Program-made: the position numbers and the translations under genes
The notes under the pieces: model-generated
Told to the model about the DNA's origin: nothing
The model's input: only the letters and a program-made list of their open reading frames with translations
Database searches by the model: none
Origin: an uncultured Gemmatimonadales bacterium
GTDB lineage: Bacteria > Gemmatimonadota > Gemmatimonadetes > Gemmatimonadales > GWC2-71-9
Direction of reading: 5' to 3'
Assembly (NCBI GenBank): GCA_963817715.1
Contig: CAWFPG010000004.1
Coordinates: 327,673 to 391,672 of the forward strand
Length of the DNA: 64,000 nt
Shown: positions 3,825 to 52,868 of the stretch, piece after piece
Position numbering within the stretch: the stretch's first letter is position 1
Layout of the letters: the number at the start of each line of letters is the position of its first letter

Positions 3825-4822
3825 CCATGACGACCCCTCCGCTGATCGTCACCGCATCGCCGCACCTCAAGGCACCCGACTCGACCCCGCGGATCATGTG
3901 GCACGTGGTCCTGAGCCTTGTGCCAGTGGTCGCCGTGGCGGGCTGGTTCTTCGGGGTGAGTGCCCTGCTGGTGATTGCCGCGGCCACGCTCGGGGCGCTG
4001 TTGGCCGAGCGCCTCTTCGGGCAGGGCGGCACCATCGCCGACGGGTCGGCGGTGATCACCGGGTTGTTGCTGGGGCTCTGCCTGCCGGCCGGGATGCCGC
4101 TCTGGATGGCGATGCTGGGTGGACTGGTCGGCATCGGGATCGGCAAGATCGTCTTCGGCGGATTGGGGCAGAACGTCTTCAACCCGGCGCTCGTGGGTCG
4201 CGCGTTCCTGCAGGCAGCATTCCCGGTGGCGATCACCACCTGGCCCCAGCCGGGCCAGGGGTTCTGGACCCTGGCCGGCGACACCTTCGCGTTGCCGTTC
4301 ACCCACGGCGTGACCGACGCCATCACCGAGGCGACGCCGCTCGGCCTCTTCAAGTTCGAGGGGCGCCTCACACCGGTCCCCGATCTCTTCCTCGGGAACA
4401 CCGCCGGCTCGCTGGGCGAGACCGCCGTGGTGGTGATCCTGCTCGGTGGGCTCTACCTGGCGTGGCGCGGCTACCTCAACTGGCGGATCCCCGTGAGCGT
4501 GCTGGGCAGCACCGCGCTGCTCGCCGCGGTGCTCCACCTGATGAATGCGGCCTGGCCACCAGTGCCGTTCATGCTCCTCTCCGGCGGGTTGATGCTGGGC
4601 GCGGTGTACATGGCGACCGACATGGTCACCTCGCCGGTGACCAATGCCGGTCGCTGGGTGTTCGGGGCCGGGATCGGGGTGCTGGTGGTCGTGATCCGCA
4701 TCTGGGGTGGCCTCCCGGAGGGCGTGATGTACGCCATCCTGCTGATGAACGCGACGGTGCCGTTCATCGATCGCTTCACGCAACCGCGGGTCTTCGGGAC
4801 CGGGCGGAGGGTGCGGGCATGA
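3821..4822 (+). CDS. rnfD: Rnf complex subunit D (NqrB/RnfD family membrane protein)
   Basis: 333-aa polytopic membrane protein with ATGA overlaps on both sides. DAITEATPLG resembles the RnfD/NqrB flavinylation region. The position after rnfC fits. Confidence 0.85.
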   Translation: MTMTTPPLIVTASPHLKAPDSTPRIMWHVVLSLVPVVAVAGWFFGVSALLVIAAATLGALLAERLFGQGGTIADGSAVITGLLLGLCLPAGMPLWMAMLGGLVGIGIGKIVFGGLGQNVFNPALVGRAFLQAAFPVAITTWPQPGQGFWTLAGDTFALPFTHGVTDAITEATPLGLFKFEGRLTPVPDLFLGNTAGSLGETAVVVILLGGLYLAWRGYLNWRIPVSVLGSTALLAAVLHLMNAAWPPVPFMLLSGGLMLGAVYMATDMVTSPVTNAGRWVFGAGIGVLVVVIRIWGGLPEGVMYAILLMNATVPFIDRFTQPRVFGTGRRVRA

Positions 4823-6116: not shown

Positions 6117-6688
6117 AGGACCTCTCCTGGATCCTGATCTCGGCGCTGCTGGTCAACAACTTCACGCTGACCCTGTTCCTCGGGCTCTGCCCGTTCTTCG
6201 GGGTCACCGGTCAGGTGTCGACGGCGTTGCGCCTCGGCGTGGCCAACATCTTCGTGATGGTGATCACCGCGCTCGCGGTCTGGCTGCTCAACGCCTACGT
6301 GCTGGTGGCGGCGCCGTTCCTGCGCATCATCGCGTTCATCGTGGTGATCGCCTCGCTGGTGCAGATCGTCGAGATGGCGATCAAGAAGATCTCGCCGGCG
6401 CTCTTCCGGGCGCTGGGGATCTACCTGCCGCTGATCACCACCAACTGTGCCATCCTGGGGTTGGCGATCTTCCAGACCAACCGCGGCTACACCCTGCTCG
6501 AGGGCCTGGCCTTCGCGCTGGGCGCCGGGCTGGGCCTCACCCTCGCGCTGGTGCTGATGGCCTCGATCCGGGAGCGCACCGAGCTGGCCGAGATCCCCGG
6601 TGCCGCCAGGGGATTCGGGCTCACGCTGATGATCGCCACCTGCCTGTCGCTCGCCTTCATGGGCTTCGCGGGGTTGGGGGCCGGATGA
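6113..6688 (+). CDS. rnfA: Rnf complex subunit A
   Basis: The ATG at 6113 overlaps the rnfE stop. Typical RnfA/NqrE sequence (LLVNNFTLTLFLGLCPFFGV, LPLITTNCAILG). Confidence 0.85.
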   Translation: MKDLSWILISALLVNNFTLTLFLGLCPFFGVTGQVSTALRLGVANIFVMVITALAVWLLNAYVLVAAPFLRIIAFIVVIASLVQIVEMAIKKISPALFRALGIYLPLITTNCAILGLAIFQTNRGYTLLEGLAFALGAGLGLTLALVLMASIRERTELAEIPGAARGFGLTLMIATCLSLAFMGFAGLGAG

Positions 6689-6828: not shown

Positions 6829-7813
6829 TGAACGCCTGGGCCCCAGCTGGGATCGGCGCCGCTTCGTCGGGGTCGGGATCGGCCTCTTCGTGCTTGCGGG
6901 GCTGCCGCTGGCCGCCCTGCGCCGCCGCCTCATGGTGCGCCGCTCAATGCCGGTGATGGGCACCATGGCCGAGCTCACCGTGGTGCATCACGACACGCCC
7001 CTGGCCGAACGCGCGATCGACGCTGCGTTCGACGTGCTGCGGCGCGTCGAGCGGCAGATGACCCGGTTCAGCGACGGCTCGGATATCGGCCGGGCCAACC
7101 TCGCGGCCGGCCGCGAGGGCGTCGCGGTGGCCCCGGCAACCGCGACCGTGCTGGCCCGGGCGCTCGAGTGGGCCTCGGCCAGCGACGGGCGCTTCGATCC
7201 CGCCCTCGGCTCGGTCATCGAGCTGTGGGATGTGGCCGACCGACACCAGCCTCCACCGGCAGGAGCGGTGCAACCGCTCGCCGGTCGTCAGTTCTGGCGC
7301 CACGTCGACCTCGCTCGTGGTCCCCGCTCGACCGCGGTCCGGTTCACCGACCCGGGCGTGCGCCTGGATCTCGGCGGGATCGCCAAGGGGCATGGCGTGG
7401 ACCTCGCCGTGAGGGCGCTCCGCGAGGCCGGCGTGACCGACGCGATCGTCAACGTCGGTGGTGACCTCTACGCGCTGGGCGAGGCCCCCGACGGTGGCCC
7501 CTGGTCGGTCGGGATCCGCTCGCCGCACCAGGCCGATATCATGGCGGCGACGCTGAAGATCAGCGACCGCGCCGTCGCGACATCGGGCGATTATGCCCAG
7601 TTCTTCACCTGGCACGGACACCGCTATCACCACCTGATGGACCCCACCACCGCGGTGCCCCGTGGTGGTCCGCTGCACAGCGTGACGGTGCAGGCCGACC
7701 AGTGCATGGATGCCGATGCGGCGGCCACCGCCACGTTCGGATTGCCACAGGGCGAGGCCGAGCGACTGGTCCGGTCGCTGGTGTCGCGCGCCGAGGTATT
7801 GCCCCTGGCCTGA
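6818..7813 (+). CDS. apbE: FAD:protein FMN transferase ApbE (flavin transferase), Tat-like signal
   Basis: LDLGGIAKGHGVD and ATSGDY motifs. The GTG at 6818 is preceded by AAGGAGG (6805-6811). The N-terminus RRRFVGVGIGLFVLAG looks twin-arginine. The ORF track's alternative start is 6794. Confidence 0.85.
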   Translation: MSVDERLGPSWDRRRFVGVGIGLFVLAGLPLAALRRRLMVRRSMPVMGTMAELTVVHHDTPLAERAIDAAFDVLRRVERQMTRFSDGSDIGRANLAAGREGVAVAPATATVLARALEWASASDGRFDPALGSVIELWDVADRHQPPPAGAVQPLAGRQFWRHVDLARGPRSTAVRFTDPGVRLDLGGIAKGHGVDLAVRALREAGVTDAIVNVGGDLYALGEAPDGGPWSVGIRSPHQADIMAATLKISDRAVATSGDYAQFFTWHGHRYHHLMDPTTAVPRGGPLHSVTVQADQCMDADAAATATFGLPQGEAERLVRSLVSRAEVLPLA

Positions 7814-8532: not shown

Positions 8533-8965
8533 GCTCCTCGCCAGGCTGCGCAGCGACCAGGTCGCCGCACGCAAGGCTGTTGACAAGGACCGGACCCTGC
8601 TGCTGGGGACGGTCCTTGCCGCATTGAAGAACCGCGAGCTCGAAGTGTCGCGCGACCTCACCGAGGACGAGGTCGTCGAGGTGCTTCGCAAGCAGATCAA
8701 GCAGCGACAGGATTCGGTCGAGCAGTACACCAAGGCCGATCGTCCCGACCTCGCCGGGCGGGAGCAGGCCGAGCTCGACGCGCTGCGGCACTACCTTCCG
8801 CCCGAGGCCGATCCGGCCGAGATCCGGGCCGCGGCCGAGGCCGCCGTCGCCGCCGGGGCGAGTGATCTTGGCAAGCTGATGGGGCGCCTGATGGGCCAGT
8901 TCAAGGGCAAGGCCGACGGCAGGACCGTCAACCGGATCGCCCGCGAGACGCTCGGCCAGGGATGA
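8513..8965 (+). CDS. GatB/YqeY domain-containing protein
   Basis: 150 aa with a YqeY-like sequence (LKNRELEV...[17 protein letters not shown]...[17 protein letters not shown]). The start is uncertain (GTG at 8513 or 8525). Confidence 0.8.
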
Positions 8966-13148: not shown

Positions 13149-13865
13149 ATGCATCCAGACCTGCCCAAGCTGCTCGAGGTCCAGGGCAAGGATCGCCGAC
13201 TTGCCGAGCTGGCAAGCAGCCTCGCCGAGCTCGAAGCCGAGCGCACGGCCCTCGACGAAGCATTGGAGGCGGCACGCCACCAGATCGATTCGGCGCGGCG
13301 AGGCCTGGAGGAGAGCGCCACCCGTCGTGACGAGCGGGCCGAGAAGCTCGAGACCCAGCGGACCCATCAGGAGCGGCGCCGTGAGCGGCTGGAGCAGGAG
13401 CGCAACCCGCGAGTGGCCGCCCAGTTGATGGCCGACGTGGAACTGGCTCGCAGCATCCTGGCGCAGGAGGAGAGCGAGTGGTTGCGGCTGGCCGAGGAAG
13501 CGACCCAGCGCGAGGCGGCGGTCGCCGCCGCCGAAGAACAGCTGGCCGTCCTCGAGAGCGAGCAGGCCGAGCAGCGCGAGACGCTGGCCCAGCAGATCGA
13601 GACCGCCACCGTCGAGCACGATGCCGCGAAGGAGGAGCGCGAGGCAGCAGCGAGCCAACTCGATCGCACCCTGCGCACCCGCTACGACCGACTGCGGAAT
13701 TCGCGCAAGACGGAAGTGCTGGTGCCGGCGAACAACGCCATCTGCACCGCCTGCTACACCGCGATCCCGCGCTCGCGCATCGGGCAGCTGCAGGCCGAAG
13801 GTCTGCTGCTCGAGGGGTGCGAGATGTGCGGTGCGCTGCTGTACATGGAGGAGGTGACGGCCTGA
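13149..13865 (+). CDS. coiled-coil C4 zinc-ribbon protein (COG1579-like)
   Basis: 238 aa: a long Glu/Arg/Ala-rich coiled coil followed by a terminal CTACYTAIP...GCEMCGALL zinc ribbon. Confidence 0.7.
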   Translation: MHPDLPKLLEVQGKDRRLAELASSLAELEAERTALDEALEAARHQIDSARRGLEESATRRDERAEKLETQRTHQERRRERLEQERNPRVAAQLMADVELARSILAQEESEWLRLAEEATQREAAVAAAEEQLAVLESEQAEQRETLAQQIETATVEHDAAKEEREAAASQLDRTLRTRYDRLRNSRKTEVLVPANNAICTACYTAIPRSRIGQLQAEGLLLEGCEMCGALLYMEEVTA

Positions 13866-21402: not shown

Positions 21403-22217
21403 TCGGTCTGACCCCGCACCCCGCCGGGACCCTGATCGACAAGGCGCTCGCGCTCCTGGCCGAGGGACCGCTCGATGCCGTGGCGGTGGCGACCCGGGTG
21501 ATGGGGCTGCCGGCCGCGCCGCCAGCGGTCGCCGAGCGGCTCGCCGCGGCGCTGCTCGGTGCCGACCCACGGGTGCGCCAGCAGGCCGATGGTCGCTGGG
21601 CGCTGGTGGCCGCCGCGCAGGGCTCCCCGCTGCTCGAGGAGTGCGCCTTCGCGGTGGTCGACGTCGAGACCACCGGGATGCGCCCCGGCGACGACGACCG
21701 GATCACCGAGATCGCAGTGGTGGTGGTGCAGGGGAGCCGCCGCGAGCTGGCGTTCGAGTCGCTGGTGAATCCGCGCCGACCGATCCCCGCGCGGATCTGC
21801 GAGCTCACCGGGATCACCAACCAGATGGTGAGTACCGCACCGACCTTCGACGAGATTGCCGACGAGCTCCTGGCCGCCCTGGCGGGTCGGGTGTTCGTGG
21901 CCCACAACGCGCGCTTCGACTGGGGCTTCGTGGGGCACGAGGTGCGCCGGGCGCGCGACCTGGTGCTCGACGGCCCGCGGCTCTGCACGGTGAAGCTGGC
22001 GCGGCGACTCTATCGCGGCGAACCGAGTTACGGGCTCGATGCGCTGGCCAATCGCTTCGCGCTCGAGTTCCCGTCGCGGCACCGCGCCGCGGGCGACGCG
22101 ATGGTGACGGGCATGCTGCTTGATCGCCTGGTCGCGGCCGCGCGGGATCGCGGCGTGCGCACCCTCGCCGACCTGGAGGTGCTGCACCGCACCCCCGTGC
22201 GCGAGGTGCCGCAGTGA
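21399..22217 (+). CDS. DEDDh 3'-5' exonuclease (DNA polymerase III epsilon-like) domain protein
   Basis: FAVVDVETTG, VAHNARFDWGFV and HRAAGDA (ExoI/II/III motifs), with an N-terminal region of about 85 aa of unknown function. Confidence 0.75.
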   Translation: MIGLTPHPAGTLIDKALALLAEGPLDAVAVATRVMGLPAAPPAVAERLAAALLGADPRVRQQADGRWALVAAAQGSPLLEECAFAVVDVETTGMRPGDDDRITEIAVVVVQGSRRELAFESLVNPRRPIPARICELTGITNQMVSTAPTFDEIADELLAALAGRVFVAHNARFDWGFVGHEVRRARDLVLDGPRLCTVKLARRLYRGEPSYGLDALANRFALEFPSRHRAAGDAMVTGMLLDRLVAAARDRGVRTLADLEVLHRTPVREVPQ

Positions 22218-23107
22218 GCAGGGCAACGACGCTCAAGGTCGGCGACCTGGTGGTGCACGCCATCGAGGCAGGCCACCAGCGGCTCGACGGCGGGGCGATG
22301 TTCGGGATCGTGCCCAAGCCGCTCTGGCAACGGCGGATCGAGCCCGACGAACGCAATCGCATCACCCTGGCGATGCGGCCGTTGTTGGTGGAGCACCCCG
22401 ACGGCCTGGTGCTGATCGACACCGGGCTCGGCAACAAGGAGGCGGCCAAGTTCCACGACATCTATGGCGTGGACAATGCCGGCGCCGACGGGCGCACGAT
22501 GCTCGAGGACGCCCTCGCCGAGCTGGGCCATGCACCGGGTGATGTGAAGATCGTGGTCGACACCCATCTGCACTTCGACCATGCCGGTGGCAACACCTTC
22601 ATCGCATCGGACGACGCCGAGCGGCGCGTGCAGGCGAGTTTCCCCAATGCGCGTTACGTGATGCACCGGCGCGAGTTCGAGTACGCCACCCACGCCAACG
22701 AGCGGACCCAGGGGAGCTACTTCGACCACAACTGGCGAGTGCTGGTCGAGGAGGACCGGGTCGACTTCCGCGACGGACCGGCGGCAGAGATCGTACCGGG
22801 GATCCGGACGATGGTCACCCCGGGGCACACCCCGTGGCACTGGAGCGTGCTGCTGGAGAGCGAGGGGGAGGCGCTCCTCTACCCAGCTGACACCGTCCCG
22901 ACGGCGGCCCACCTGCCGCTGCCATGGATCATGGGCTACGACGTGGAGCCGCTCCGCACCCTGGAGAGCAAGCGGGCGCTCTACACCCGCGGCGTCGCCG
23001 AGGGGTGGCGGGTGGTCTTCGAGCACGACGCCCGGGTGGTGGGCGGGCGGCTGGTGGAGGGCGAGAAGGGGATCGAGCTGGATGAGGTGGTGCGGGTGGG
23101 AGACTAG
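22214..23107 (+). CDS. MBL-fold metallo-hydrolase
   Basis: 297 aa with the THLHFDHAGG metal-binding motif. Confidence 0.8.
   Translation: MSRATTLKVGDLVVHAIEAGHQRLDGGAMFGIVPKPLWQRRIEPDERNRITLAMRPLLVEHPDGLVLIDTGLGNKEAAKFHDIYGVDNAGADGRTMLEDALAELGHAPGDVKIVVDTHLHFDHAGGNTFIASDDAERRVQASFPNARYVMHRREFEYATHANERTQGSYFDHNWRVLVEEDRVDFRDGPAAEIVPGIRTMVTPGHTPWHWSVLLESEGEALLYPADTVPTAAHLPLPWIMGYDVEPLRTLESKRALYTRGVAEGWRVVFEHDARVVGGRLVEGEKGIELDEVVRVGD
22997..23107 (+). repeat. direct repeat copy A (the in-frame 3' end of the MBL gene)
   Basis: These 111 nt recur at 24289-24399 with about 8 mismatches by hand alignment. Both copies end in ...gtgcgggtgggagactag. Confidence 0.85.
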
Positions 23108-23925
23108 CCGGATCCCGGCTCGAGCGTCACGTCTGCTGGACGCGGCACGACACCGCCCGGGGCGCCGAAGTGCGGCACGAGACCCTGGGCGGCCAGCGTT
23201 CGACCGGCATCGGGCATCACGAAGCACTGCTCCGTGCTGGACCAGTAGAGACACCCCGCTTCCGCGGCCGGGCGCTCGTTGGCAAACCGCTCGGCATCGT
23301 CCAGGGCGGCCAGCCAGGTCGACTTGGCGGCAGGGACGTCGAACGGCGTCGCCAGGTGCAGTCGACCGAACTCCTCCGGACGGTATCGCCCGCGACGCTT
23401 GAGCAGTTCGAGCAACGAAAGCGGAGTGAAGCCCGGGTCCTTGCCGACGGCGGCCCACACCAGGCCGGCGAGTGGCAGCACCTGCCGGTGTACGTACAGG
23501 ATGTCCACGAAGTCGCGGGGCTCGTCACGGCCCGCCAGGGCGAGCGCCTTGTTGATTGCCAGATCGACCGGGTCGAGCAGCAGTCCGCCGAGGGGATCAC
23601 GCACCAGCGGCATGAAGCGCCAGGCCGAGTCGTGGGCCCAGTCGATTCGAGTCGAGGCTGTGTCGCGACGGACCACTGCCCGGACGAATCCCGGGAGGCT
23701 CTGTTCGATCTCGACGACGAAGCCCGATGCTTCGAGCCTGCTCCGGTCCGTCGTGAATGTGCGGGCGACCCGCTCCTCGGAATCGTGAAAGAAATCGAGG
23801 TCGTCGCTGTAGCGCGAGCTGTGCGGCGCGAAATGCATCGCCGCTCCGCCGGCGAGATAGCGCTCGTCGGTGGGCGCGGCGGCGAGGGTCGCCAGCAACT
23901 CCTTCTGGAATCGGGTCAGCGGCAC
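23104..23925 (-). CDS. nucleotidyltransferase AbiEii/AbiGii-family toxin (type IV TA, DUF1814-like)
   Basis: 273 aa. SRYSDDLDFFH and DPVDLAINKALALAGR...PRDFVDI resemble AbiEii NTase motifs. Confidence 0.7.
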   Translation of the reverse strand: MPLTRFQKELLATLAAAPTDERYLAGGAAMHFAPHSSRYSDDLDFFHDSEERVARTFTTDRSRLEASGFVVEIEQSLPGFVRAVVRRDTASTRIDWAHDSAWRFMPLVRDPLGGLLLDPVDLAINKALALAGRDEPRDFVDILYVHRQVLPLAGLVWAAVGKDPGFTPLSLLELLKRRGRYRPEEFGRLHLATPFDVPAAKSTWLAALDDAERFANERPAAEAGCLYWSSTEQCFVMPDAGRTLAAQGLVPHFGAPGGVVPRPADVTLEPGSG

Positions 23926-24179
23926 AGCCGCTCCGCCAGCCGCCAGGCGGTCCGGTCGCCGTGCTTGCGAAGCTGCTCGGCGACCCAGGCCACGTCGTCG
24001 CGTCCGATCGCCAGGTCGGGGCGATACGACCAGAAGCAGGTCGCGTGGTAGCGGCGATAGGCACGCCGTGCCTCGCGGACCTTGACCATCCGGCGAGCCG
24101 TGTCGGGATCGAGCACGCGGCGGCTCTTGCGCCCGCCGCGGGCGCCGATCGTGGCGAGGTAGGTGCGGACATCGTTCAT
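23916..24179 (-). CDS. small basic protein (87 aa), putative cognate antitoxin or regulator of the AbiEii-like toxin
   Basis: It lies upstream of the toxin gene and overlaps it by 10 nt. The N-terminus is basic (GARGGRKSRR). It is not a canonical-length AbiEi. Confidence 0.5.
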   Translation of the reverse strand: MNDVRTYLATIGARGGRKSRRVLDPDTARRMVKVREARRAYRRYHATCFWSYRPDLAIGRDDVAWVAEQLRKHGDRTAWRLAERLCR

Positions 24180-24185
24180 GACATC

Positions 24186-24214
24186 AACGTATCCGGCTTA
24201 TGATGTAAAGTCAA
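24186..24214 (-). promoter_or_regulatory. candidate sigma-70-type promoter for the TA operon (possibly leaderless)
   Basis: The minus strand reads TTGACT-17 nt-TACGTT, and the -10 element ends 6 nt before the ATG at 24179. It lies in the only AT-rich patch nearby, next to an AATAGTAATAGT tandem hexamer. Confidence 0.3.
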
Positions 24215-24288
24215 TAGTAATAGTTGTTTAGCTTGGACATGCCGAGCTGCGCTGGCTGGAGGCCTGGGGAATCTCTCCTCTCGGCCTT

Positions 24289-24399
24289 GCCGAGGGATGG
24301 CGGGTGGTCTTCGAGCACGACGCCCGGGTGGTCGGCGGTCGGCTGGTGGAGGGCGAGAAGTGCGTCGCGCTGGACGAGGTGGTGCGGGTGGGAGACTAG
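24289..24399 (+). repeat. direct repeat copy B (displaced relic of the MBL gene's 3' end)
   Basis: It translates to AEGWRVVFEHDARVVGGRLVEGEKCVALDEVVRVGD*, against AEGWRVVFEHDARVVGGRLVEGEKGIELDEVVRVGD* for copy A. It has no upstream coding continuation. Confidence 0.85.
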
Positions 24400-24499
24400 G
24401 CTTCGTCAGTCCGACGATGGCTCAAGGTAGGACCCTGCCGATTTCGGGCGCGGTGCTTTGTAACAGTCCATCTCCGAATTGCTTGAAGTGAAGTTGCTA

Positions 24500-24510
24500 T
24501 CCCCCCCCCC
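24500..24510. repeat. homopolymeric C11 tract
   Basis: I counted 11 consecutive C, about 150 nt upstream of the lipoprotein gene start at 24660, in a lower-GC intergenic region. Confidence 0.9.
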
Positions 24511-24659
24511 CAGAATGAGTTGCGGGCCTACTAGGAATAACCCCAGGGGGTCCTGGGGCTTGCTCCCCAGTTCGCAATTCTGCACGTATGAATCGCGATC
24601 GTGCGGATACGCGGTCGTGACTCGTGAGGCGGTAGATCAGGTCTCGTGACTCGAGAGTC

Positions 24660-25802
24660 ATGATGCTCGGCTCGATGGATGTACCCCACAGCGTTGGGCT
24701 GCTTCTCCTCGTGGGGCTCGCGGGATGCGCCGCGCGTGGCGACGCGCCCGGGGACTCGAACATTTCCCCATCCAGCCCGGTGGTGATGCCGACTCTCGAG
24801 CGAGTCGCCTTCAAGCCCGACACGGGGAGTTCTCCATTCGGCAAGGTGCCGATCGCCGCAGATCCGAGCGGGGGCATCTACTACTACGGTCGCACCAACG
24901 GCACCCAATTGTTGACCCGGCTGGATTCGTCCGGAACGGCCATCGCCCGGTTTGGGAGCGCGGGCGCTGGCCCGGGCGAACTCTCTGGCGCCGGGGTGCT
25001 GTTGTCCAGCGGTGACACCCTGGCAGTCTACGATACGCGGAAAGCTGCCCTCGTCCTGTTCGGACCAGCCGGCGGAGTTCGTGGGGAGTTCAGGCTTGAA
25101 GCGCTCGGCTTCCCCTTGGCACTTGATGGTGACCGACTATTCACGAGTGATCTGGACGCGCCGCTGAGACACGAGCCTCCCGCCATTGTCGAGAGTCGTC
25201 TCGGCTCAGACTCCAGCTCGATCTTCCTGGGGGAAGGGGATCGGGCCTTCGTTGACGCAATTGTCCCCGATCCCTCGAGTTCCCCCAGTCATCTGCCTAT
25301 ACCGGTATTCACTGTTCGTGGAACACGGAGCGCGATCGGCAACCCACGCACGGGCAGGGTCACGGTCTGGGATGGGGCAGCGTCCTTTACGCTCCGACCT
25401 CCTGGCGAGGCGCCGAAGCGAGGTCCGCGTGGGCTTGAGGAAACGCGGGCGGCGCTCGAGGCGAGCCTGAACCAGTTGACCCCAGCAGGGCCGGCGAGGT
25501 CTCGCAGGAACACGGTGCTCCGCGAGCGTCTCGACACGCTGGCACGGGAGCAGCTTCCATGGTTCCTCTGGCCCGGGCTTCAGTTCGACGACCACGGACG
25601 ACTGTGGATCTTCAGCGACCGCGATGATTCTACCAGCGTGGATGTCTTCGCCGGCGAACGTCACCTCGGCCGATTGACACTGCCATGCTACCACCCTGAC
25701 AAGTGGGTTTCGCTCACTACCGGTTGGTTGGCGCTCCAGTGCAAAGGTGATCCCGAGGCCGATGTCCCCTATGAGCTGCAGCTATACCGCGTGGAGGGCT
25801 GA
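24660..25802 (+). CDS. hypothetical lipoprotein (possible beta-propeller)
   Basis: The signal peptide has the lipobox LLLVGLAGC. It is 380 aa with repetitive Gly/Asp-rich strand-like segments. No family recognised. Confidence 0.55.
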   Translation: MMLGSMDVPHSVGLLLLVGLAGCAARGDAPGDSNISPSSPVVMPTLERVAFKPDTGSSPFGKVPIAADPSGGIYYYGRTNGTQLLTRLDSSGTAIARFGSAGAGPGELSGAGVLLSSGDTLAVYDTRKAALVLFGPAGGVRGEFRLEALGFPLALDGDRLFTSDLDAPLRHEPPAIVESRLGSDSSSIFLGEGDRAFVDAIVPDPSSSPSHLPIPVFTVRGTRSAIGNPRTGRVTVWDGAASFTLRPPGEAPKRGPRGLEETRAALEASLNQLTPAGPARSRRNTVLRERLDTLAREQLPWFLWPGLQFDDHGRLWIFSDRDDSTSVDVFAGERHLGRLTLPCYHPDKWVSLTTGWLALQCKGDPEADVPYELQLYRVEG

Positions 25803-25897: not shown

Positions 25898-26350
25898 GTG
25901 CGCATTCCCCACCTCATCACCCTGCTGGCGGTAGTCGCCGCCCCAGCGATTGCCGCCGCCCAGGACAACAGGCCAGCCAACCCGCTCCCCACTCAGGTCG
26001 CCGCCAGCTTCCTGGAGAACGCCTCCAACGGTGACCTCGAGGCGGCCGCAGTGCTCCTCGCCCCCACCTTCGAGATCGACCACGTGATGGGCCGCCGGTT
26101 CGTGCAGCCCCAGACGCGTGAGGGGATGCTCAAGGCGTTCCAGGCCGCGCCGAAGCGCCGCTTCGAGGTGCTGGCCCAGGTGGCCGACGGCCCGTTCGTG
26201 CTGCAGAAGGTCCGCCCGATCGCCCCTGACGGGACCGCCGGCCCCAGCACCATGTGGATGTTCGAGGTCAAGGGCGACCAGATCATTGGCCTCTGGCACT
26301 TCGACGCGTCCTCGACGATGGCGGCCCGGACCGAGGCGGCCGGGCCCTGA
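25898..26350 (+). CDS. secreted NTF2/SnoaL-like fold protein (hypothetical)
   Basis: 150 aa with the signal peptide MRIPHLITLLAVVAAPAIAAAQ. Its size and pattern suggest an NTF2-like fold, but the assignment is weak. Confidence 0.5.
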   Translation: MRIPHLITLLAVVAAPAIAAAQDNRPANPLPTQVAASFLENASNGDLEAAAVLLAPTFEIDHVMGRRFVQPQTREGMLKAFQAAPKRRFEVLAQVADGPFVLQKVRPIAPDGTAGPSTMWMFEVKGDQIIGLWHFDASSTMAARTEAAGP

Positions 26351-42872: not shown

Positions 42873-43322
42873 ATGCCCCGTCGGAACGGATTCACCATCA
42901 TCGAGCTGCTTGTCGTCATCACGATCATCGGCATCCTCGCGTCGATCGCGTTGCCACGCTACGCCTATCTCAAACAGCGCGCCTACCTTGCCGCCGTGAA
43001 GAGTGATCTCCACAATCTGGTGACCGCCCAGGAAGCCTTCTACGCGAGCAACGACGACTACGCCGGCTCGATCGCGCCCGGCAACAGCGACGTCCCGGGG
43101 AAGCGCGGAGCCGGCGCGGTGGCCTTCCAGTTCAGCCCCGGTGTCCGACTCGTTCGGATGCGCTATCGATACAACCGTCGGCGGGGGCAGGGCTGGAACG
43201 CGGTGGTCCGGCACCTGCAGATCAAGGATCGATCGACGGATCGCTGCGGGATCTATATCGGGTCGGATCGGTACTCGCCGAATCGGGCGGTGACCTCGCC
43301 CGGAGCGGTCGCCTGCTGGTAG
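42873..43322 (+). CDS. type IV pilin-like protein (prepilin-type N-terminal cleavage/methylation domain), copy 1
   Basis: MPRRNG|FTIIELLVVITIIGILASIALPRY is a class III signal with Glu5. It has a C-terminal Cys pair (C...ACW). Confidence 0.8.
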   Translation: MPRRNGFTIIELLVVITIIGILASIALPRYAYLKQRAYLAAVKSDLHNLVTAQEAFYASNDDYAGSIAPGNSDVPGKRGAGAVAFQFSPGVRLVRMRYRYNRRRGQGWNAVVRHLQIKDRSTDRCGIYIGSDRYSPNRAVTSPGAVACW

Positions 43323-43892: not shown

Positions 43893-43975
43893 GCTCGGGT
43901 GGCGGAATGGCAGACGCAGGGGTCTTAAACACCCCGGGGGGCGACCCCGTGCGGGTTCGAGTCCCGCCCTGAGCA
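43893..43975 (+). tRNA. tRNA-Leu (anticodon UAA), class II with a long variable arm
   Basis: Hand-folded: acceptor GCTCGGG/CCTGAGC, D-arm GCGGAATGGCAGACGC, anticodon arm GGGGT-CTTAAAC-ACCCC, a 15-nt variable arm, T-arm GCGGG-TTCGAGT-CCCGC and discriminator A. CCA is not encoded. Confidence 0.92.
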
Positions 43976-44002: not shown

Positions 44003-44446
44003 ATGCGGGATCGGCGGGGCTTCACCCTCATTGAACTGCTGGCGGTGGTGACGATCATCGGCATCCTGGCGTCGATGGCGGTGCCGCGCTACGCCTATCT
44101 GAAGCAGCGGGCCTTCATCGCGTCGATGATCTCCGACCTGCACAACCTGATCTCGGCCGAGGAGGCTTTCTATTCGGTGAACGGCGACTACGCAGGCGGA
44201 ATCACTCCCGGCGCCGAGGTCCCCGGCACCGGGGGCGCGGGCCGGGCGACGCTGATTCCGAGTCCCGGCGTATCGATCACGGTCACTTGGCACTACAGTG
44301 ACTCGAACGGCGAGGGATGGAGCGCAGTGGCAACCCATCCCGGAGTGACCGACCCGAACCGTGATCAATGCGGAGTGTTCATGGGCAATGTGAGCTACTC
44401 GCCCAGCGCCTCGGTGACCCAGCCGGGTGTGATCACCTGTTACTGA
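44003..44446 (+). CDS. type IV pilin-like protein (prepilin-type N-terminal domain), copy 2
   Basis: MRDRRG|FTLIELLAVVTIIGILASMAVPRY. It is paralogous to copy 1 along its whole length and ends with a C-terminal Cys pair (...ITCY). Confidence 0.8.
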   Translation: MRDRRGFTLIELLAVVTIIGILASMAVPRYAYLKQRAFIASMISDLHNLISAEEAFYSVNGDYAGGITPGAEVPGTGGAGRATLIPSPGVSITVTWHYSDSNGEGWSAVATHPGVTDPNRDQCGVFMGNVSYSPSASVTQPGVITCY

Positions 44447-50879: not shown

Positions 50880-52868
50880 ATGTCCGAGACCGAGACCCCC
50901 CCGACCGCCCCCGAAACCACCGGGGACGACTCCGTGTCGCCTGTCAAGAACGAGTCGGCGACCGCTTCCGAGACTGATTCGGCGACCGCTTCCACGAAGG
51001 AGTCGGCCACCGCCTCCGAGGACGCGCCGGCGACCGCCACCGAGAGTGAGCCGGTGGCGACCGCCGTCGAAGAGCCCGAGGCGGAGACCGTCGACGAGCC
51101 GGTGTTCGCCATGGCCGATGTCCCGGGGATGCCGTTTGCCACGGTGACCGGGTTGCGCGTCCGCCCCGACCTCTACGACGACGAGTACTCGGACGACGAG
51201 TACGAGGCGATGCTGGAGCTGTACGAGGGGACGATGTCGCAGATCGCCGAGGGCGAGATCGTCAAGTCCAAGGTGCTGCGCGTCACCGACAACGCCGTGA
51301 TCCTCGACGTCGGCTTCAAGTCGGAGGGGTCGGTCCCGCTCGACGAGTTCAAGGATCCCCAGAATCTCCAGGTCGGCGACGAGGTCGAGGTCTTCCTCGA
51401 GCATCTCGAGGACCAGGAGGGCGCGGTCGTCCTGTCAAAGAAGAAGGCCGACTTCATGCGCGTCTGGGAGAAGATCCGCCAGGCGCATGAGAACGACCAG
51501 CCGGTCGAGGGCACCCTGATGAAGAAGATCAAGGGTGGCGTGGTGGTGAACCTGATGGGCGTCGATGCGTTCCTGCCCGGTTCCCAGATCGCGTTGCGGC
51601 GGGTGCCCAACATCGATGAGCTTCTCGGCTCGACCTACGAGTTCAAGATCATCAAGCTCAACAAGCGGCGGCGAAACATCGTCGTCTCGCGCCGGGTGAT
51701 CCTCGAGACCGAGCGCGCCGGCAAGCGCGAGAAGCTGATGAAGGAGCTCGAGGTGGGCCAGGTCCGGAAGGGCGTGGTCAAGAACATCACCGACTTCGGC
51801 GCCTTCATCGATCTCGGCGGTGTGGACGGCCTGCTGCACATCACCGACATGTCCTACGGTCGCGTCTCGCACCCGAGCGAGCTCGTCACGATCGGCAACG
51901 AGGTCGAGGTCAAGATCCTCGACATCGACTGGCAGCGCGAGCGGATCTCGCTCGGCATGAAGCAGCTGCAGAGCTACCCCTGGAAGGACGTCGCCGTGCG
52001 CTACCCGGTCGGCGCCCGGGTCCAGGGCAAGGTCGTCTCGATCACCAACTACGGCGCCTTCGTGGAGCTGGAGCCGGGGATCGAGGGCCTGGTCCACATC
52101 TCGGAGATGAGCTGGACGCGCAACGTCCGCCACCCGTCGAAGATCGTCTCCATCGGCGAGACGATCGAGGCGGTGGTGCTCAAGGTCGACGAGGGCGAGG
52201 AGAAGATCTCGCTCGGCATGAAGCAGACCGAGCAGGATCCGTGGATGGTGCTGCCGCTGAAGTACCCGGTTGGCACCCGGATCAGTGGCAAGGTCCGCAA
52301 CCTCACCTCCTTCGGTGCCTTCGTCGAGATCGAGCCCGGCATCGACGGCCTGATCCACATCTCCGACATGTCGTGGACCAAGCGGGTCCAGCATCCGTCG
52401 GAAGTGGTCAAGAAGGGCGACACCGTCGACGTCATCATCCTCAACATCGATGCTGACAACAAGCGGATCTCGCTGGGCCTCAAGCAGGCCACCGACGACC
52501 CGTGGCTCACCATCGGCGAGACGCTGCCGGTGGGCACCGAGCGGCGCGCCACCGTGCTCCGGCCGGTGGACAAGGGCATCGTGGTCGATCTCGGCGACGA
52601 CATCGAGGGCTTCGCCCCCGTGTCGCAGATGGGAATCGGTCCGGACCAGCAGCCCGAGGACGCGGTGGTCGAGGGACAGCAGGTGATTGCCAAGGTCCTC
52701 GAGGTCGACCCCATTCACCACCGGGTGGTGGTCGCGATCATCGAGTATCCCGAGGACGGCATCCCGTCGCCCGAGGAAGTGGCTGCCGCCAAGGCCGCGG
52801 CCGAGGCCAAGGCCGCCGAGGCCAAGGCCTCGGAGGCCGAGGACGACGAGGAGAGCAGCGACGCCTGA
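50880..52868 (+). CDS. rpsA: 30S ribosomal protein S1 (six S1 domains) with a possible ~100-aa acidic N-terminal extension
   Basis: Repeated S1-domain signatures (GxVxGxV...FGAFV(E/D)L..G(I/V)(E/D)GL(V/I)HIS(E/D)MS). The N-terminus contains SATAS three times. The true start is uncertain. Confidence 0.92.
   Translation: MSETETPPTAPETTGDDSVSPVKNESATASETDSATASTKESATASEDAPATATESEPVATAVEEPEAETVDEPVFAMADVPGMPFATVTGLRVRPDLYDDEYSDDEYEAMLELYEGTMSQIAEGEIVKSKVLRVTDNAVILDVGFKSEGSVPLDEFKDPQNLQVGDEVEVFLEHLEDQEGAVVLSKKKADFMRVWEKIRQAHENDQPVEGTLMKKIKGGVVVNLMGVDAFLPGSQIALRRVPNIDELLGSTYEFKIIKLNKRRRNIVVSRRVILETERAGKREKLMKELEVGQVRKGVVKNITDFGAFIDLGGVDGLLHITDMSYGRVSHPSELVTIGNEVEVKILDIDWQRERISLGMKQLQSYPWKDVAVRYPVGARVQGKVVSITNYGAFVELEPGIEGLVHISEMSWTRNVRHPSKIVSIGETIEAVVLKVDEGEEKISLGMKQTEQDPWMVLPLKYPVGTRISGKVRNLTSFGAFVEIEPGIDGLIHISDMSWTKRVQHPSEVVKKGDTVDVIILNIDADNKRISLGLKQATDDPWLTIGETLPVGTERRATVLRPVDKGIVVDLGDDIEGFAPVSQMGIGPDQQPEDAVVEGQQVIAKVLEVDPIHHRVVVAIIEYPEDGIPSPEEVAAAKAAAEAKAAEAKASEAEDDEESSDA

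Follow-up and report, generated by a model that had tools for sequence, protein, structure and literature searches.

A putative AbiEii-type toxin–antitoxin pair between two copies of a hydrolase gene end at an insertion hot spot in a Gemmatimonadales genome

We analysed a 64,000-nt stretch of DNA from an uncultured Gemmatimonadales bacterium (the window), in which the 3′ end of a gene for an MBL-fold hydrolase is present twice, with a putative toxin–antitoxin (TA) pair of the AbiEii type between the two copies. Most likely, host recombination at a hot spot for gene insertion left the locus as its scar, which would be an event of a known kind; we put at about 0.55 the probability that the repeat is the overlap left where such recombination, acting without a dedicated integrase, joined two versions of the hot spot. 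The movement of solitary TA pairs without a visible mobility gene is poorly documented. The locus offers a clean, datable example: the target gene is intact, a gene end has been displaced, and relatives show both an empty site and a TA junction that is conserved separately. Its setting is a hot spot flanked by two core genes, MBL and infC, and the phylum has been little studied.

The duplicated end of the hydrolase gene

The MBL gene (22214..23107, plus strand) is intact and encodes 297 residues that match Pfam Lactamase_B with E = 8e-17. By sequence the protein resembles the YtnP-type lactonases, at a score below the cut-off of that family (best NCBIfam match lactonase_YtnP, 188 bits against a cut-off of 425). 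The orthologue in the closest relative that we found, at the locus L001, is of equal length and is 89% identical in amino acids and 86% in nucleotides. A mosaic signal in this comparison was considered and rejected. The last 200 nt of the gene are the best conserved (0.91-0.96), but all lineages show nucleotide conservation here, which therefore gives no evidence of recent exchange. Exact-protein look-ups with the MBL and the toxin of the window returned no record. In a metagenome scan with the MBL, the closest match was 78% identical in amino acids and no TA pair adjoined the MBL.

Direct comparison identifies copy A of the repeat (22997..23107, plus strand) as the working 3′ end of this gene, comprising 36 codons and a TAG stop. 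Copy B (24289..24399, plus strand), about 1.3 kb downstream, is a displaced and non-functional end that has neither a start codon nor a gene body. Aligned without gaps, the two are direct repeats of 111 nt with 8 mismatches (103/111 identical, 92.8%), exactly as counted by hand in the initial annotation, and they have in common the terminus that it described (GGAGACTAG / GTGCGGGTGGGAGACTAG). Their blastn E-value is 1e-43, and in a repeat search the match stretches to 118 nt at 92% (22990-23107 / 24282-24399). No other long repeat of such identity occurs within the window, where the two longer direct repeats are 72-73% identical. The near-identical peptide that had been read from copy B is also borne out: it translates as AEGWRVVFEHDARVVGGRLVEGEKCVALDEVVRVGD up to the stop codon, the counterpart in copy A being ...GEKGIELDE..., and an in-frame stop stands about 20 codons upstream, where the gene body is absent. 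Similarity falls off sharply upstream of 22997/24289. A search of the repeat region against Rfam returned nothing at E <= 1, and generic scans detected no terminators or promoters.

Copy A matches L001 at six of the eight sites at which the copies differ, and the private substitutions number 6 in copy B and 2 in copy A. Copy B also carries a Gly to Cys change at a glycine that is invariant across 11 aligned orthologues. Relative to L001, the two copies have at least one change in common, at a codon third position (ATC/GTC versus GTG), and both end in TAG where L001 has TGA. The C-terminal tail of the MBL differs widely among lineages, and copy A, copy B and L001 all have LDEVVRVGD. Since both copies carry this clade-specific tail, neither derives from a distant former host, and both parents would have been close relatives.

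A minimal module between the copies

The spacer between the copies (23108-24288, 1181 nt) contains two genes and about 110 nt besides. The gene for the AbiEii-family nucleotidyltransferase toxin (273 aa; 23104..23925, minus strand) matches Pfam PF08843 with 34.1 bits against a gathering cut-off of 22.5 (E = 3.5e-8) and PADLOC AbiEii with E = 2e-5. Its stop codon overlaps that of the MBL gene in the palindrome CTAG (23104-23107). The toxin has 3066 homologues at E < 1e-10, mostly from Gemmatimonadota. Published work on the family describes AbiEii toxins as nucleotidyltransferases that require GTP and have tRNA as their target. Upstream, overlapping the toxin start by 10 nt, lies the gene for an 87-aa partner (23916..24179, minus strand), a putative antitoxin, to which we assign this role from its position. 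At ten further loci with the TA module the partner is likewise conserved in front of the toxin gene, as a full 87-aa gene in 8/10. It found no match in Pfam, NCBIfam, PADLOC or PDB and does not qualify as an AbiEi. As in the AbiE type IV TA systems, the toxin is an AbiEii (DUF1814) nucleotidyltransferase encoded in one operon with a second gene, which lies upstream and runs into the toxin start. The difference lies in the partner, which here has only 87 residues and matches no AbiEi, whereas canonical AbiEi antitoxins are much larger winged-helix proteins with a neutralising domain at the C terminus. On these sequence features we regard toxin and partner as a putative TA pair.

A candidate promoter of the TA operon (24186..24214, minus strand) has TTGACT as its -35 element (24214-24209), a 17-nt spacer with ATCATAAGC, and TACGTT as its -10 element (24191-24186). 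The same motifs with the same spacing lie upstream at six TA loci, and we base the assignment on this conservation rather than on the generic promoter scan, which did not call it. The ATG begins 6 nt past the -10 element, so the TA mRNA is probably leaderless.

The initial annotation had listed an AbiEii-like toxin, a small partner and a promoter as the only contents of the insert and had noted the lack of an integrase, and the ORF list and Pfam searches agree with this inventory. No spacer ORF of at least 40 aa matched an integrase, and no mobility gene was found in the insert or among its neighbours (Rex, an exonuclease, MBL and the propeller gene described below). The insert contains no transposase and no inverted repeat pairing its ends, and the duplication is 111 nt long, features that do not fit an insertion sequence or transposon. 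The insert (23108-24288) matches the minimal module, consisting of the promoter and two genes, of ten other loci. The module is complete, as the lengths of toxin and partner match those of their homologues. Being a bare minimal module, the insert has essentially no room for the remains of an island.

On the far side of the promoter, homology to two other loci with the module, L081 and L009, stops near 24214-24235. A junction filler of 53 nt (24236..24288) then separates the end of module homology from copy B. This filler has no homology to what lies past the TA promoter in L081 and folds no better than shuffled sequences.

Two versions of the MBL–infC hot spot

The genes further downstream in the window are infC and rplT, as judged by conserved synteny. 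The spacer between MBL and infC measures about 210-300 nt in most of about 160 related loci and reaches 8.6 kb, and is a general insertion hot spot. Pfam searches of 18 long ORFs from eight of its larger insertions identified an ATPase, DsbA, an outer-membrane protein, peptidases and propeller proteins and found no integrase; the genes were picked by a GC3-based procedure that is crude for lower-GC insertions.

L001 represents a different species-level lineage and is not conspecific with the window (divergence at fourfold sites 0.30). It provides the empty site that the initial annotation had predicted: the homologue of the window sequence from 24400 onwards begins directly behind its MBL stop, and the two repeats correspond to its single MBL end. 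The claim of an insertion footprint, with a displaced gene end beside an intact MBL gene, is thereby upheld. The sequence in question, segment X (24400..24659, plus strand), is non-coding and includes a C11 tract (24501-24511). It lies directly 3′ of the MBL stop in L001, with which it is collinear from the first post-stop base (MAFFT) and 82% identical over 108 nt (blastn). Next to it stands a gene for a secreted or lipoprotein-like protein of 380 aa, a divergent six-bladed propeller (DUF5128/NHL-like; 24660..25802, plus strand), which is 72% identical in amino acids to its counterpart in L001. Distant blastp links connect this protein with others that match DUF5128/NHL: at this hot spot in L024 and, by way of L009 and L082, in L116, and elsewhere in L082. 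The propeller gene is hot-spot cargo common to the window and L001, and its GC content is 0.62-0.66, against 0.70 for the window.

The other junction is found in L081. Here the module adjoins the MBL stop with the same 4-nt CTAG overlap and is followed by the infC leader, without a repeat. Between the window and L081 the divergence at fourfold sites is 0.386 in MBL, 0.378 in the toxin gene and 0.319 in the partner gene. The module is thus as diverged as MBL, which makes it an old resident of the MBL-adjacent position in this clade. In L009, too, the module adjoins MBL and no repeat is present, and the right-hand junctions differ. L024 has an orphan antitoxin in the hot spot. The module has been found between MBL and infC at least three or four times: in the window and L081, in L009, and as the orphan antitoxin of L024. 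The initial annotation had proposed a search for the same cassette at other MBL-type ends; it occupies this position in L081 and L009, but no repeat accompanies it there, and elsewhere the module occupies unrelated sites. The junction of copy A with the TA pair (as in L081) and that of MBL with segment X (as in L001) occur separately in relatives, and the window contains both junction types.

We favour an origin in which these two versions were brought together. In the first, as in L081, MBL would be followed by the TA pair, tail-to-tail against the MBL stop; in the second, as in L001, by segment X and the propeller-lipoprotein gene. DNA of a close relative carrying one version would have entered a cell with the other. 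One end of it would have recombined by homology, in MBL or on the infC side, and the other would have joined illegitimately at MBL codon 262, a process known as homology-facilitated illegitimate recombination (HFIR). Single-crossover integration of a circularised fragment would have had an equivalent outcome. The product would read MBL(copy A)-TA-filler-copy B-X, with an intact MBL gene, a dead gene end and the TA pair between long direct repeats, a pattern known from restriction-modification (RM) modules as insertion with long target duplication. Homologous anchors are present in MBL and infC, both of which are conserved. The joint itself (24288/24289) shows no clear microhomology, at most a CGGC common to both copies that lies just left of the repeat. 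We infer this mechanism from its product alone, since our searches turned up no conspecific donor or recipient genome and the closest relative available for comparison has an MBL of 89% amino acid identity. The 6 private changes of copy B and the 2 of copy A, the change that both have in common and the divergence of 0.30 from L001 would together date the event to after the split from L001, provided that copy B drifts neutrally and that no gene conversion has taken place between the copies.

The repeats should permit RecA-dependent loss of the module and thereby a return to the empty site, a loss that the addiction property of the module would counteract. The practical effect is small: MBL is intact, and the repeat probably does no more than allow homologous recombination to remove the TA pair.

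In T6SS effector-immunity arrays, HFIR is the proposed origin of displaced 3′ ends and of orphan immunity genes (Kirchberger et al. 2017, PMC5361080, which refers to de Vries and Wackernagel 2002 and to Prudhomme et al. 2002); Rhs C-terminal displacement is a further case of this kind. As in those systems, a conserved gene in the window would serve as anchor, a module would have been inserted after it and the old 3′ remnant shifted downstream, and no integrase was found. In the T6SS and Rhs cases, however, the variable 3′ end is a toxin domain, and orphan remnants are potentially useful as immunity genes or toxin tips. The piece displaced in the window belongs to a housekeeping-type hydrolase and has no evident use, and the mechanism is deduced.

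Other origins of the repeat

Site-specific integration would leave a similar arrangement. Integrase islands and CIMEs target the 3′ ends of protein-coding or tRNA genes, as the ICESt1/ICESt3 family does at fda. As in the window, their repeats contain the target-gene end, the replacement end keeps the gene intact, and integrase-less derivatives exist. An element with a tyrosine or serine recombinase, an attP mimicking the MBL 3′ end and an attB in the gene could have been reduced to a decayed island, or to a CIME-like element mobilised in trans. The classic att footprint consists of direct repeats that take in the 3′ end of a gene as far as its stop, of a target that is left intact and of an empty site in a relative, and all are found here. 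The imperfect repeat, at 93%, would also suit a copy brought in by the element. We nevertheless consider such an origin unlikely. The spacer is a bare TA module with neither integrase nor island remnant. When the last 160 nt of the MBL of each locus were compared by blastn with the 13 kb downstream, a duplicate of the MBL end was found in 0/75 related genome loci, many of which contain insertions; only the window has one. The long ORFs scanned in the eight larger insertions include no integrase. The module of L081 adjoins MBL without repeats and has diverged together with it, the module occurs elsewhere at unrelated sites that are not MBL-like ends, and both copies in the window carry the host clade's own tail. 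In contrast to integrase islands and CIMEs, the loci examined yielded no cognate element with an integrase, no recurring att sequence and no sign that the module is specific for this site. An integrase encoded elsewhere in the genome may still act in trans, as the window is 64 kb of a contig of about 1 Mb and the recombinase scans covered the insert, its neighbours and the long ORFs of the eight insertions. These results speak against the integrative element targeting MBL 3′ ends that the initial annotation had proposed. Nothing points to its decayed integrase island, given that the insert equals the minimal module of ten other loci and that the module in L081 has co-diverged with MBL. A duplicated gene end alone is no evidence for an integrase island.

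Alternatively, the AbiEii-type module could itself be mobile, in line with the unusually small mobile cassette that the initial annotation gave as its other option, and could generate long target duplications of variable length, as has been proposed for the life cycle of RM systems. Movement could proceed through damage and repair provoked by the toxin, or through host recombination acting on circular copies. Its family is dispersed as an isolated pair of genes whose boundaries are sharply conserved: it stands alone in at least eight other, unrelated contexts with no adjoining recombinase, and it recurs in the MBL–infC hot spot as described above. At a second locus (L085, L086 and L087) a repeat of 47 nt, with a single mismatch between its copies, lies on either side of the module. 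In a control, 2/11 TA loci but 0/399 random segments of 1.1 kb from these loci had flanking direct repeats of 40 nt or longer with an identity of 90% or more, the first count being biased by the inclusion of the window, which was selected for its repeat. The solitary contexts and this control also count for the favoured origin by host recombination. The remaining 9/11 loci have no flanking repeat. The repeat of L085 is ambiguous, since it lies in hairpin-rich sequence that recurs in the relative L172, where a TA pair has one copy of the repeat and similar hairpin repeats follow other genes; it may thus predate the module. To our knowledge, AbiEii toxins are not DNA-cleaving enzymes, which leaves no evident link between the module and DNA breakage. 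We therefore hold self-movement of the module to be unlikely. Among possible carriers, rhizobial megaplasmids have AbiEii genes that are only 33-38% identical, and no AbiEii genes turned up in phages.

The closest precedent for the arrangement in the window, whichever way it arose, comes from RM systems, which have inserted with target duplications of 46-423 bp, some overlapping gene 3′ ends, and without mobility genes (Furuta, Abe and Kobayashi 2010, PMC2853133); an earlier account of such insertions is that of Nobusato et al. (2000, Gene 259:99, as cited in PMC2853133). Furuta et al. looked for complete modules of less than 20 kb, direct repeats of more than 30 bp, a single copy at the empty site and no mobility genes. 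In the window the module is complete within 1181 nt, the repeat is 111 nt long, L001 has the empty site, albeit in another species-level lineage, and no mobility genes are found. The two cases thus agree in having a small addiction-type module, long direct repeats and a relative with a single-copy empty site. They differ in cargo and host, here an AbiEii-type TA pair in a member of the Gemmatimonadales. Moreover, the repeats are 93% identical, not near-identical as in the RM cases, so the event in the window is older. In the literature that we searched, 'insertion with long target duplication' denotes insertions of RM systems alone, and TA reviews mention it in no other sense. The locus extends the long-target-duplication pattern from RM systems to a TA pair. 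There is only a slim chance that the AbiEii-type module of Gemmatimonadota is a self-sufficient minimal mobile element that spreads by long, variable target duplications, a mode of spread that has been proposed, never demonstrated, for RM systems. If it were, the flanking repeats would serve later excision or amplification, and long target duplication would be a general mobility mode of addiction modules.

We rate a purely local origin as improbable, in either of its two forms taken together. Replication slippage or unequal exchange would have duplicated the MBL end in situ, independently of the arrival of the TA pair, or an older and longer duplication would have been partly homogenised by gene conversion. 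Such an origin would account for the derived states common to copies A and B, including TAG where L001 has TGA. A weak collinear similarity that continues for a further 57-60 nt upstream could also be what is left of a longer duplicate that has decayed, over about 57 nt upstream of copy B. However, this similarity is marginal: in global alignment it was equalled by 19/3893 random window segments (p about 0.005), and local alignment of the upstream extension was not significant. What lies between the copies is exactly the TA module, and what follows copy B is exactly the post-stop sequence of L001, an arrangement that indicates insertion with duplication rather than tandem duplication. A tandem duplication would require two further precise deletions, and we rejected models of this kind as unparsimonious.

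It is highly improbable that the locus is an assembly artefact, in which a strain with the MBL-TA junction and one with the MBL-X junction were fused into a chimera: the contig is metagenome-assembled and the two junction types do occur separately in relatives, but a chimeric join needs an overlap, and the filler (24236-24288) has none with the sequence at MBL codon 262. The copies also have 8 sites at which they disagree, some of them through changes in copy B that look like decay, and the toxin (P0001) lies on a contig of 993168 bp, which suggests a long-read assembly.

The repeated gene end and the module it encloses

The last 36 codons and the TAG stop of the MBL-fold hydrolase gene (MBL, 22214-23107) occupy 22997-23107 (copy A) and recur at 24289-24399 (copy B). 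Ungapped alignment gave 8 mismatches in 111 nt (blastn E = 1e-43), exactly the figure that had been estimated in the initial annotation. A repeat search lengthened the match to 118 nt, and within the 64-kb window no second repeat is both as long and as similar. Copy B is still in frame (…GEKCVALDEVVRVGD*), but an in-frame stop lies about 20 codons 5' of it and it has no gene body. Identity is lost sharply 5' of 22997 and 24289. The 57-60 nt preceding the copies show a weak collinear resemblance that is marginal, with 19 of 3893 control segments scoring equally, and local alignment of these stretches was not significant.

The 1181 nt between the copies contain the toxin-antitoxin (TA) pair and promoter that had been described from the sequence, and no integrase. 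An AbiEii-family ORF of 273 aa lies at 23104-23925 on the minus strand (Pfam PF08843 above the gathering score), and a partner of 87 aa, the putative antitoxin, is placed upstream of it at 23916-24179; for this partner, neither families nor solved structures gave a match. Homologues of the toxin abound in Gemmatimonadota (3066 matches at E < 1e-10), and the family is found as a solitary two-gene unit in many unrelated neighbourhoods, always with the partner gene upstream and in most loci 87 aa long. Homology between loci spans the conserved promoter to the toxin stop, and the window insert consists of this minimal module and 53 nt of filler, so no leftover sequence could represent the remains of a larger island.

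The promoter is sigma-70-like (24186-24214, minus strand) and is kept in five other TA loci as TTGAC(A/T), a 17-nt spacer with ATCATAAGC, and TAYSWT. The ATG follows 6-8 nt past this -10 element and the transcript is therefore probably leaderless; the ATCATAAGC motif is a possible operator. Toxin and MBL genes are convergent, and their stop codons overlap by 4 nt in the palindrome CTAG, both in the window (23104-23107) and in the related locus L081 (1553-1556), which leaves terminators no space between the two genes.

Empty and occupied sites in related genomes

The window belongs to a Gemmatimonadales metagenome-assembled genome. The core gene order in about 160 related loci (L001-L080 and L088-L167) is rex, DnaQ-like exonuclease, MBL, infC, rpmI, rplT. 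MBL and infC are mostly separated by a spacer of about 210-300 nt; some genomes have 0.8-8.6 kb there, filled with cargo of unrelated kinds (peptidases, DsbA, an outer-membrane protein, an AAA ATPase). The spacer is therefore a hypervariable insertion hot spot of Gemmatimonadales. A DUF5128/NHL-like propeller protein of about 380-400 aa is recurrent among this cargo.

L001, the closest available relative (MBL 89% identical in amino acids, 86% in nucleotides), is without the TA pair. Its homologue of the non-coding segment that begins at window 24400 starts at the first base past the MBL stop (82% over 108 nt, poly-C tract included) and leads into an orthologue of the 380-aa propeller gene. The empty site predicted for relatives is thus present. 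In L081, a 2.5-kb contig, the module directly adjoins MBL, the two stop codons overlapping in CTAG as in the window; about 400 nt separate it from infC, and this contig has neither an MBL-end repeat nor a propeller gene. The module also lies 3' of MBL in L009, a more distant locus (MBL 70%). The window has both junctions, each of which is found singly in relatives, and they overlap in the last 111 nt of MBL.

By MBL identity the loci group as ((window, L001), (L081, L002)); the module is absent from L001 and L002. Divergence between window and L081 at four-fold sites is similar for MBL (0.386), toxin (0.378) and partner (0.319), so the module has been joined to MBL throughout the separation of these two lineages.

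At the 8 sites where the copies differ, L001 agrees with copy A at 6 and with copy B at 2; at 8 additional sites it differs from both. Among the private changes of copy B, a Gly invariant across 11 aligned orthologues has become Cys, which looks like decay. The C-terminal tail of MBL varies in nearly every lineage and LDEVVRVGD is common to both copies and L001, so both copies stem from the clade of window and L001, not from some distant former host. Assuming that copy B drifts neutrally and without gene conversion, its 6 private changes in 111 nt, set against a four-fold-site divergence from L001 of 0.30, place the duplication well after the split from that lineage.

Origin of the arrangement

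The simplest explanation is recombination between DNA of one arrangement and a chromosome of the other. Incoming DNA with either MBL-TA or MBL joined to the non-coding segment would have met a chromosome carrying the alternative, one end being held by homology and the other forming an illegitimate joint at MBL codon 262; a circularised fragment integrating by single crossover would be equivalent. The TA pair may be an old resident of the site, as it co-diverges with MBL and has a genome-like GC content (0.68-0.70), while GC content is 0.60-0.66 in the block from copy B through the propeller gene, and this gene is just 72% identical to its L001 counterpart. Alternatively, the pair may be a newcomer, since the nearest relative is without it.

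The locus is a long-target-duplication insertion, a known type of event, here with a TA pair in Gemmatimonadales. Kobayashi's group described "insertion with long target duplication" for restriction-modification modules, with repeats of 46-423 bp, no mobility genes, an empty site in a relative and, in some cases, repeats overlapping a gene 3' end (PMC2853133); the window locus belongs to the same product class. The proposed mechanism is akin to the homology-facilitated illegitimate recombination put forward for displaced 3' ends at T6SS and Rhs loci (PMC5361080). The main worth of the locus is as a well-resolved example of such an insertion, and it warns against taking every duplicated gene end for an att site.

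The TA pair may instead be an autonomous mini-cassette whose insertion produces long target duplications. At a second locus (L085, L086, L087), copies of a 47-nt repeat that differ by one mismatch bracket the same TA family, and comparable repeats flanked 0 of 399 random 1.1-kb control segments. However, 9 of 11 TA loci have no flanking repeat, and in the relative L172 the hairpin-rich sequence to which the L085 repeat belongs is found again between adjacent genes. A purely local duplication of the MBL end would require additional precise deletions. The decayed integrase island of the initial annotation, or a CIME-like element, fits the footprint but fails each comparative test: an MBL 3'-end repeat was found downstream in 0 of 75 related genome loci, no integrase among the long ORFs of eight larger insertions, and no recombinase adjoining the module in the unrelated neighbourhoods examined. 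Of the initial interpretation, the insertion footprint that displaced a gene end is supported and the decayed integrase island is not; an integrase encoded elsewhere in the genome could conceivably have acted in trans. An assembly chimera is unlikely, given a joint without sequence overlap and the decay visible in copy B.

Further repeats and variable features

Around the TA pair of L085 (also L086 and L087), just 3' of an Smr gene, the 47-nt hairpin-rich direct repeats lie at 7495-7541 and 8838-8884. In L172, one small same-strand gene after another is followed by a similar repeat (1956-1986/2767-2798 and 2789-2951/3560-3723), an arrangement that resembles a cassette array, perhaps integron-like or CALIN-like.

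At the MBL-infC hot spot, a second displaced gene end is seen in a different genome, L009, where a perfect 26-nt direct repeat (4551-4576 and 6350-6375) comprises the last 8 codons and stop of a 385-aa propeller-like gene, the second copy lying just past the TA promoter; the repeats enclose 1.8 kb with a 218-aa ORF and the propeller-like gene. Within its 8.6-kb insertion, L024 carries a homologue of the 87-aa partner (13388-13651, minus strand; 71% aa) as an orphan, with no toxin gene and an opposite-strand DUF5128 gene filling the expected toxin position. In the window, the propeller gene and infC flank a 150-aa ORF (25898-26350) without a family match. L001 lacks this ORF and instead has about 400 additional nt, with a small signal-peptide-like ORF, 5' of its own propeller gene. 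The C11 tract at 24501-24511, in the non-coding segment 5' of the 380-aa gene, is interrupted in L001 (CTCCCCCCC) and could be phase-variable or reflect homopolymer sequencing uncertainty.

Elsewhere in the window, a 202-nt direct repeat of 73% identity (42881-43082 and 44011-44212, 1130 nt apart) may represent paralogous genes or another rearrangement footprint. The only tRNA gene of the window, tRNA-Leu (anticodon TAA, 43893-43975), lies between its copies, directly 5' of the second. A 179-nt direct repeat of 72% identity (51939-52117 and 52200-52378, spacing 261 nt) is probably internal to a gene.
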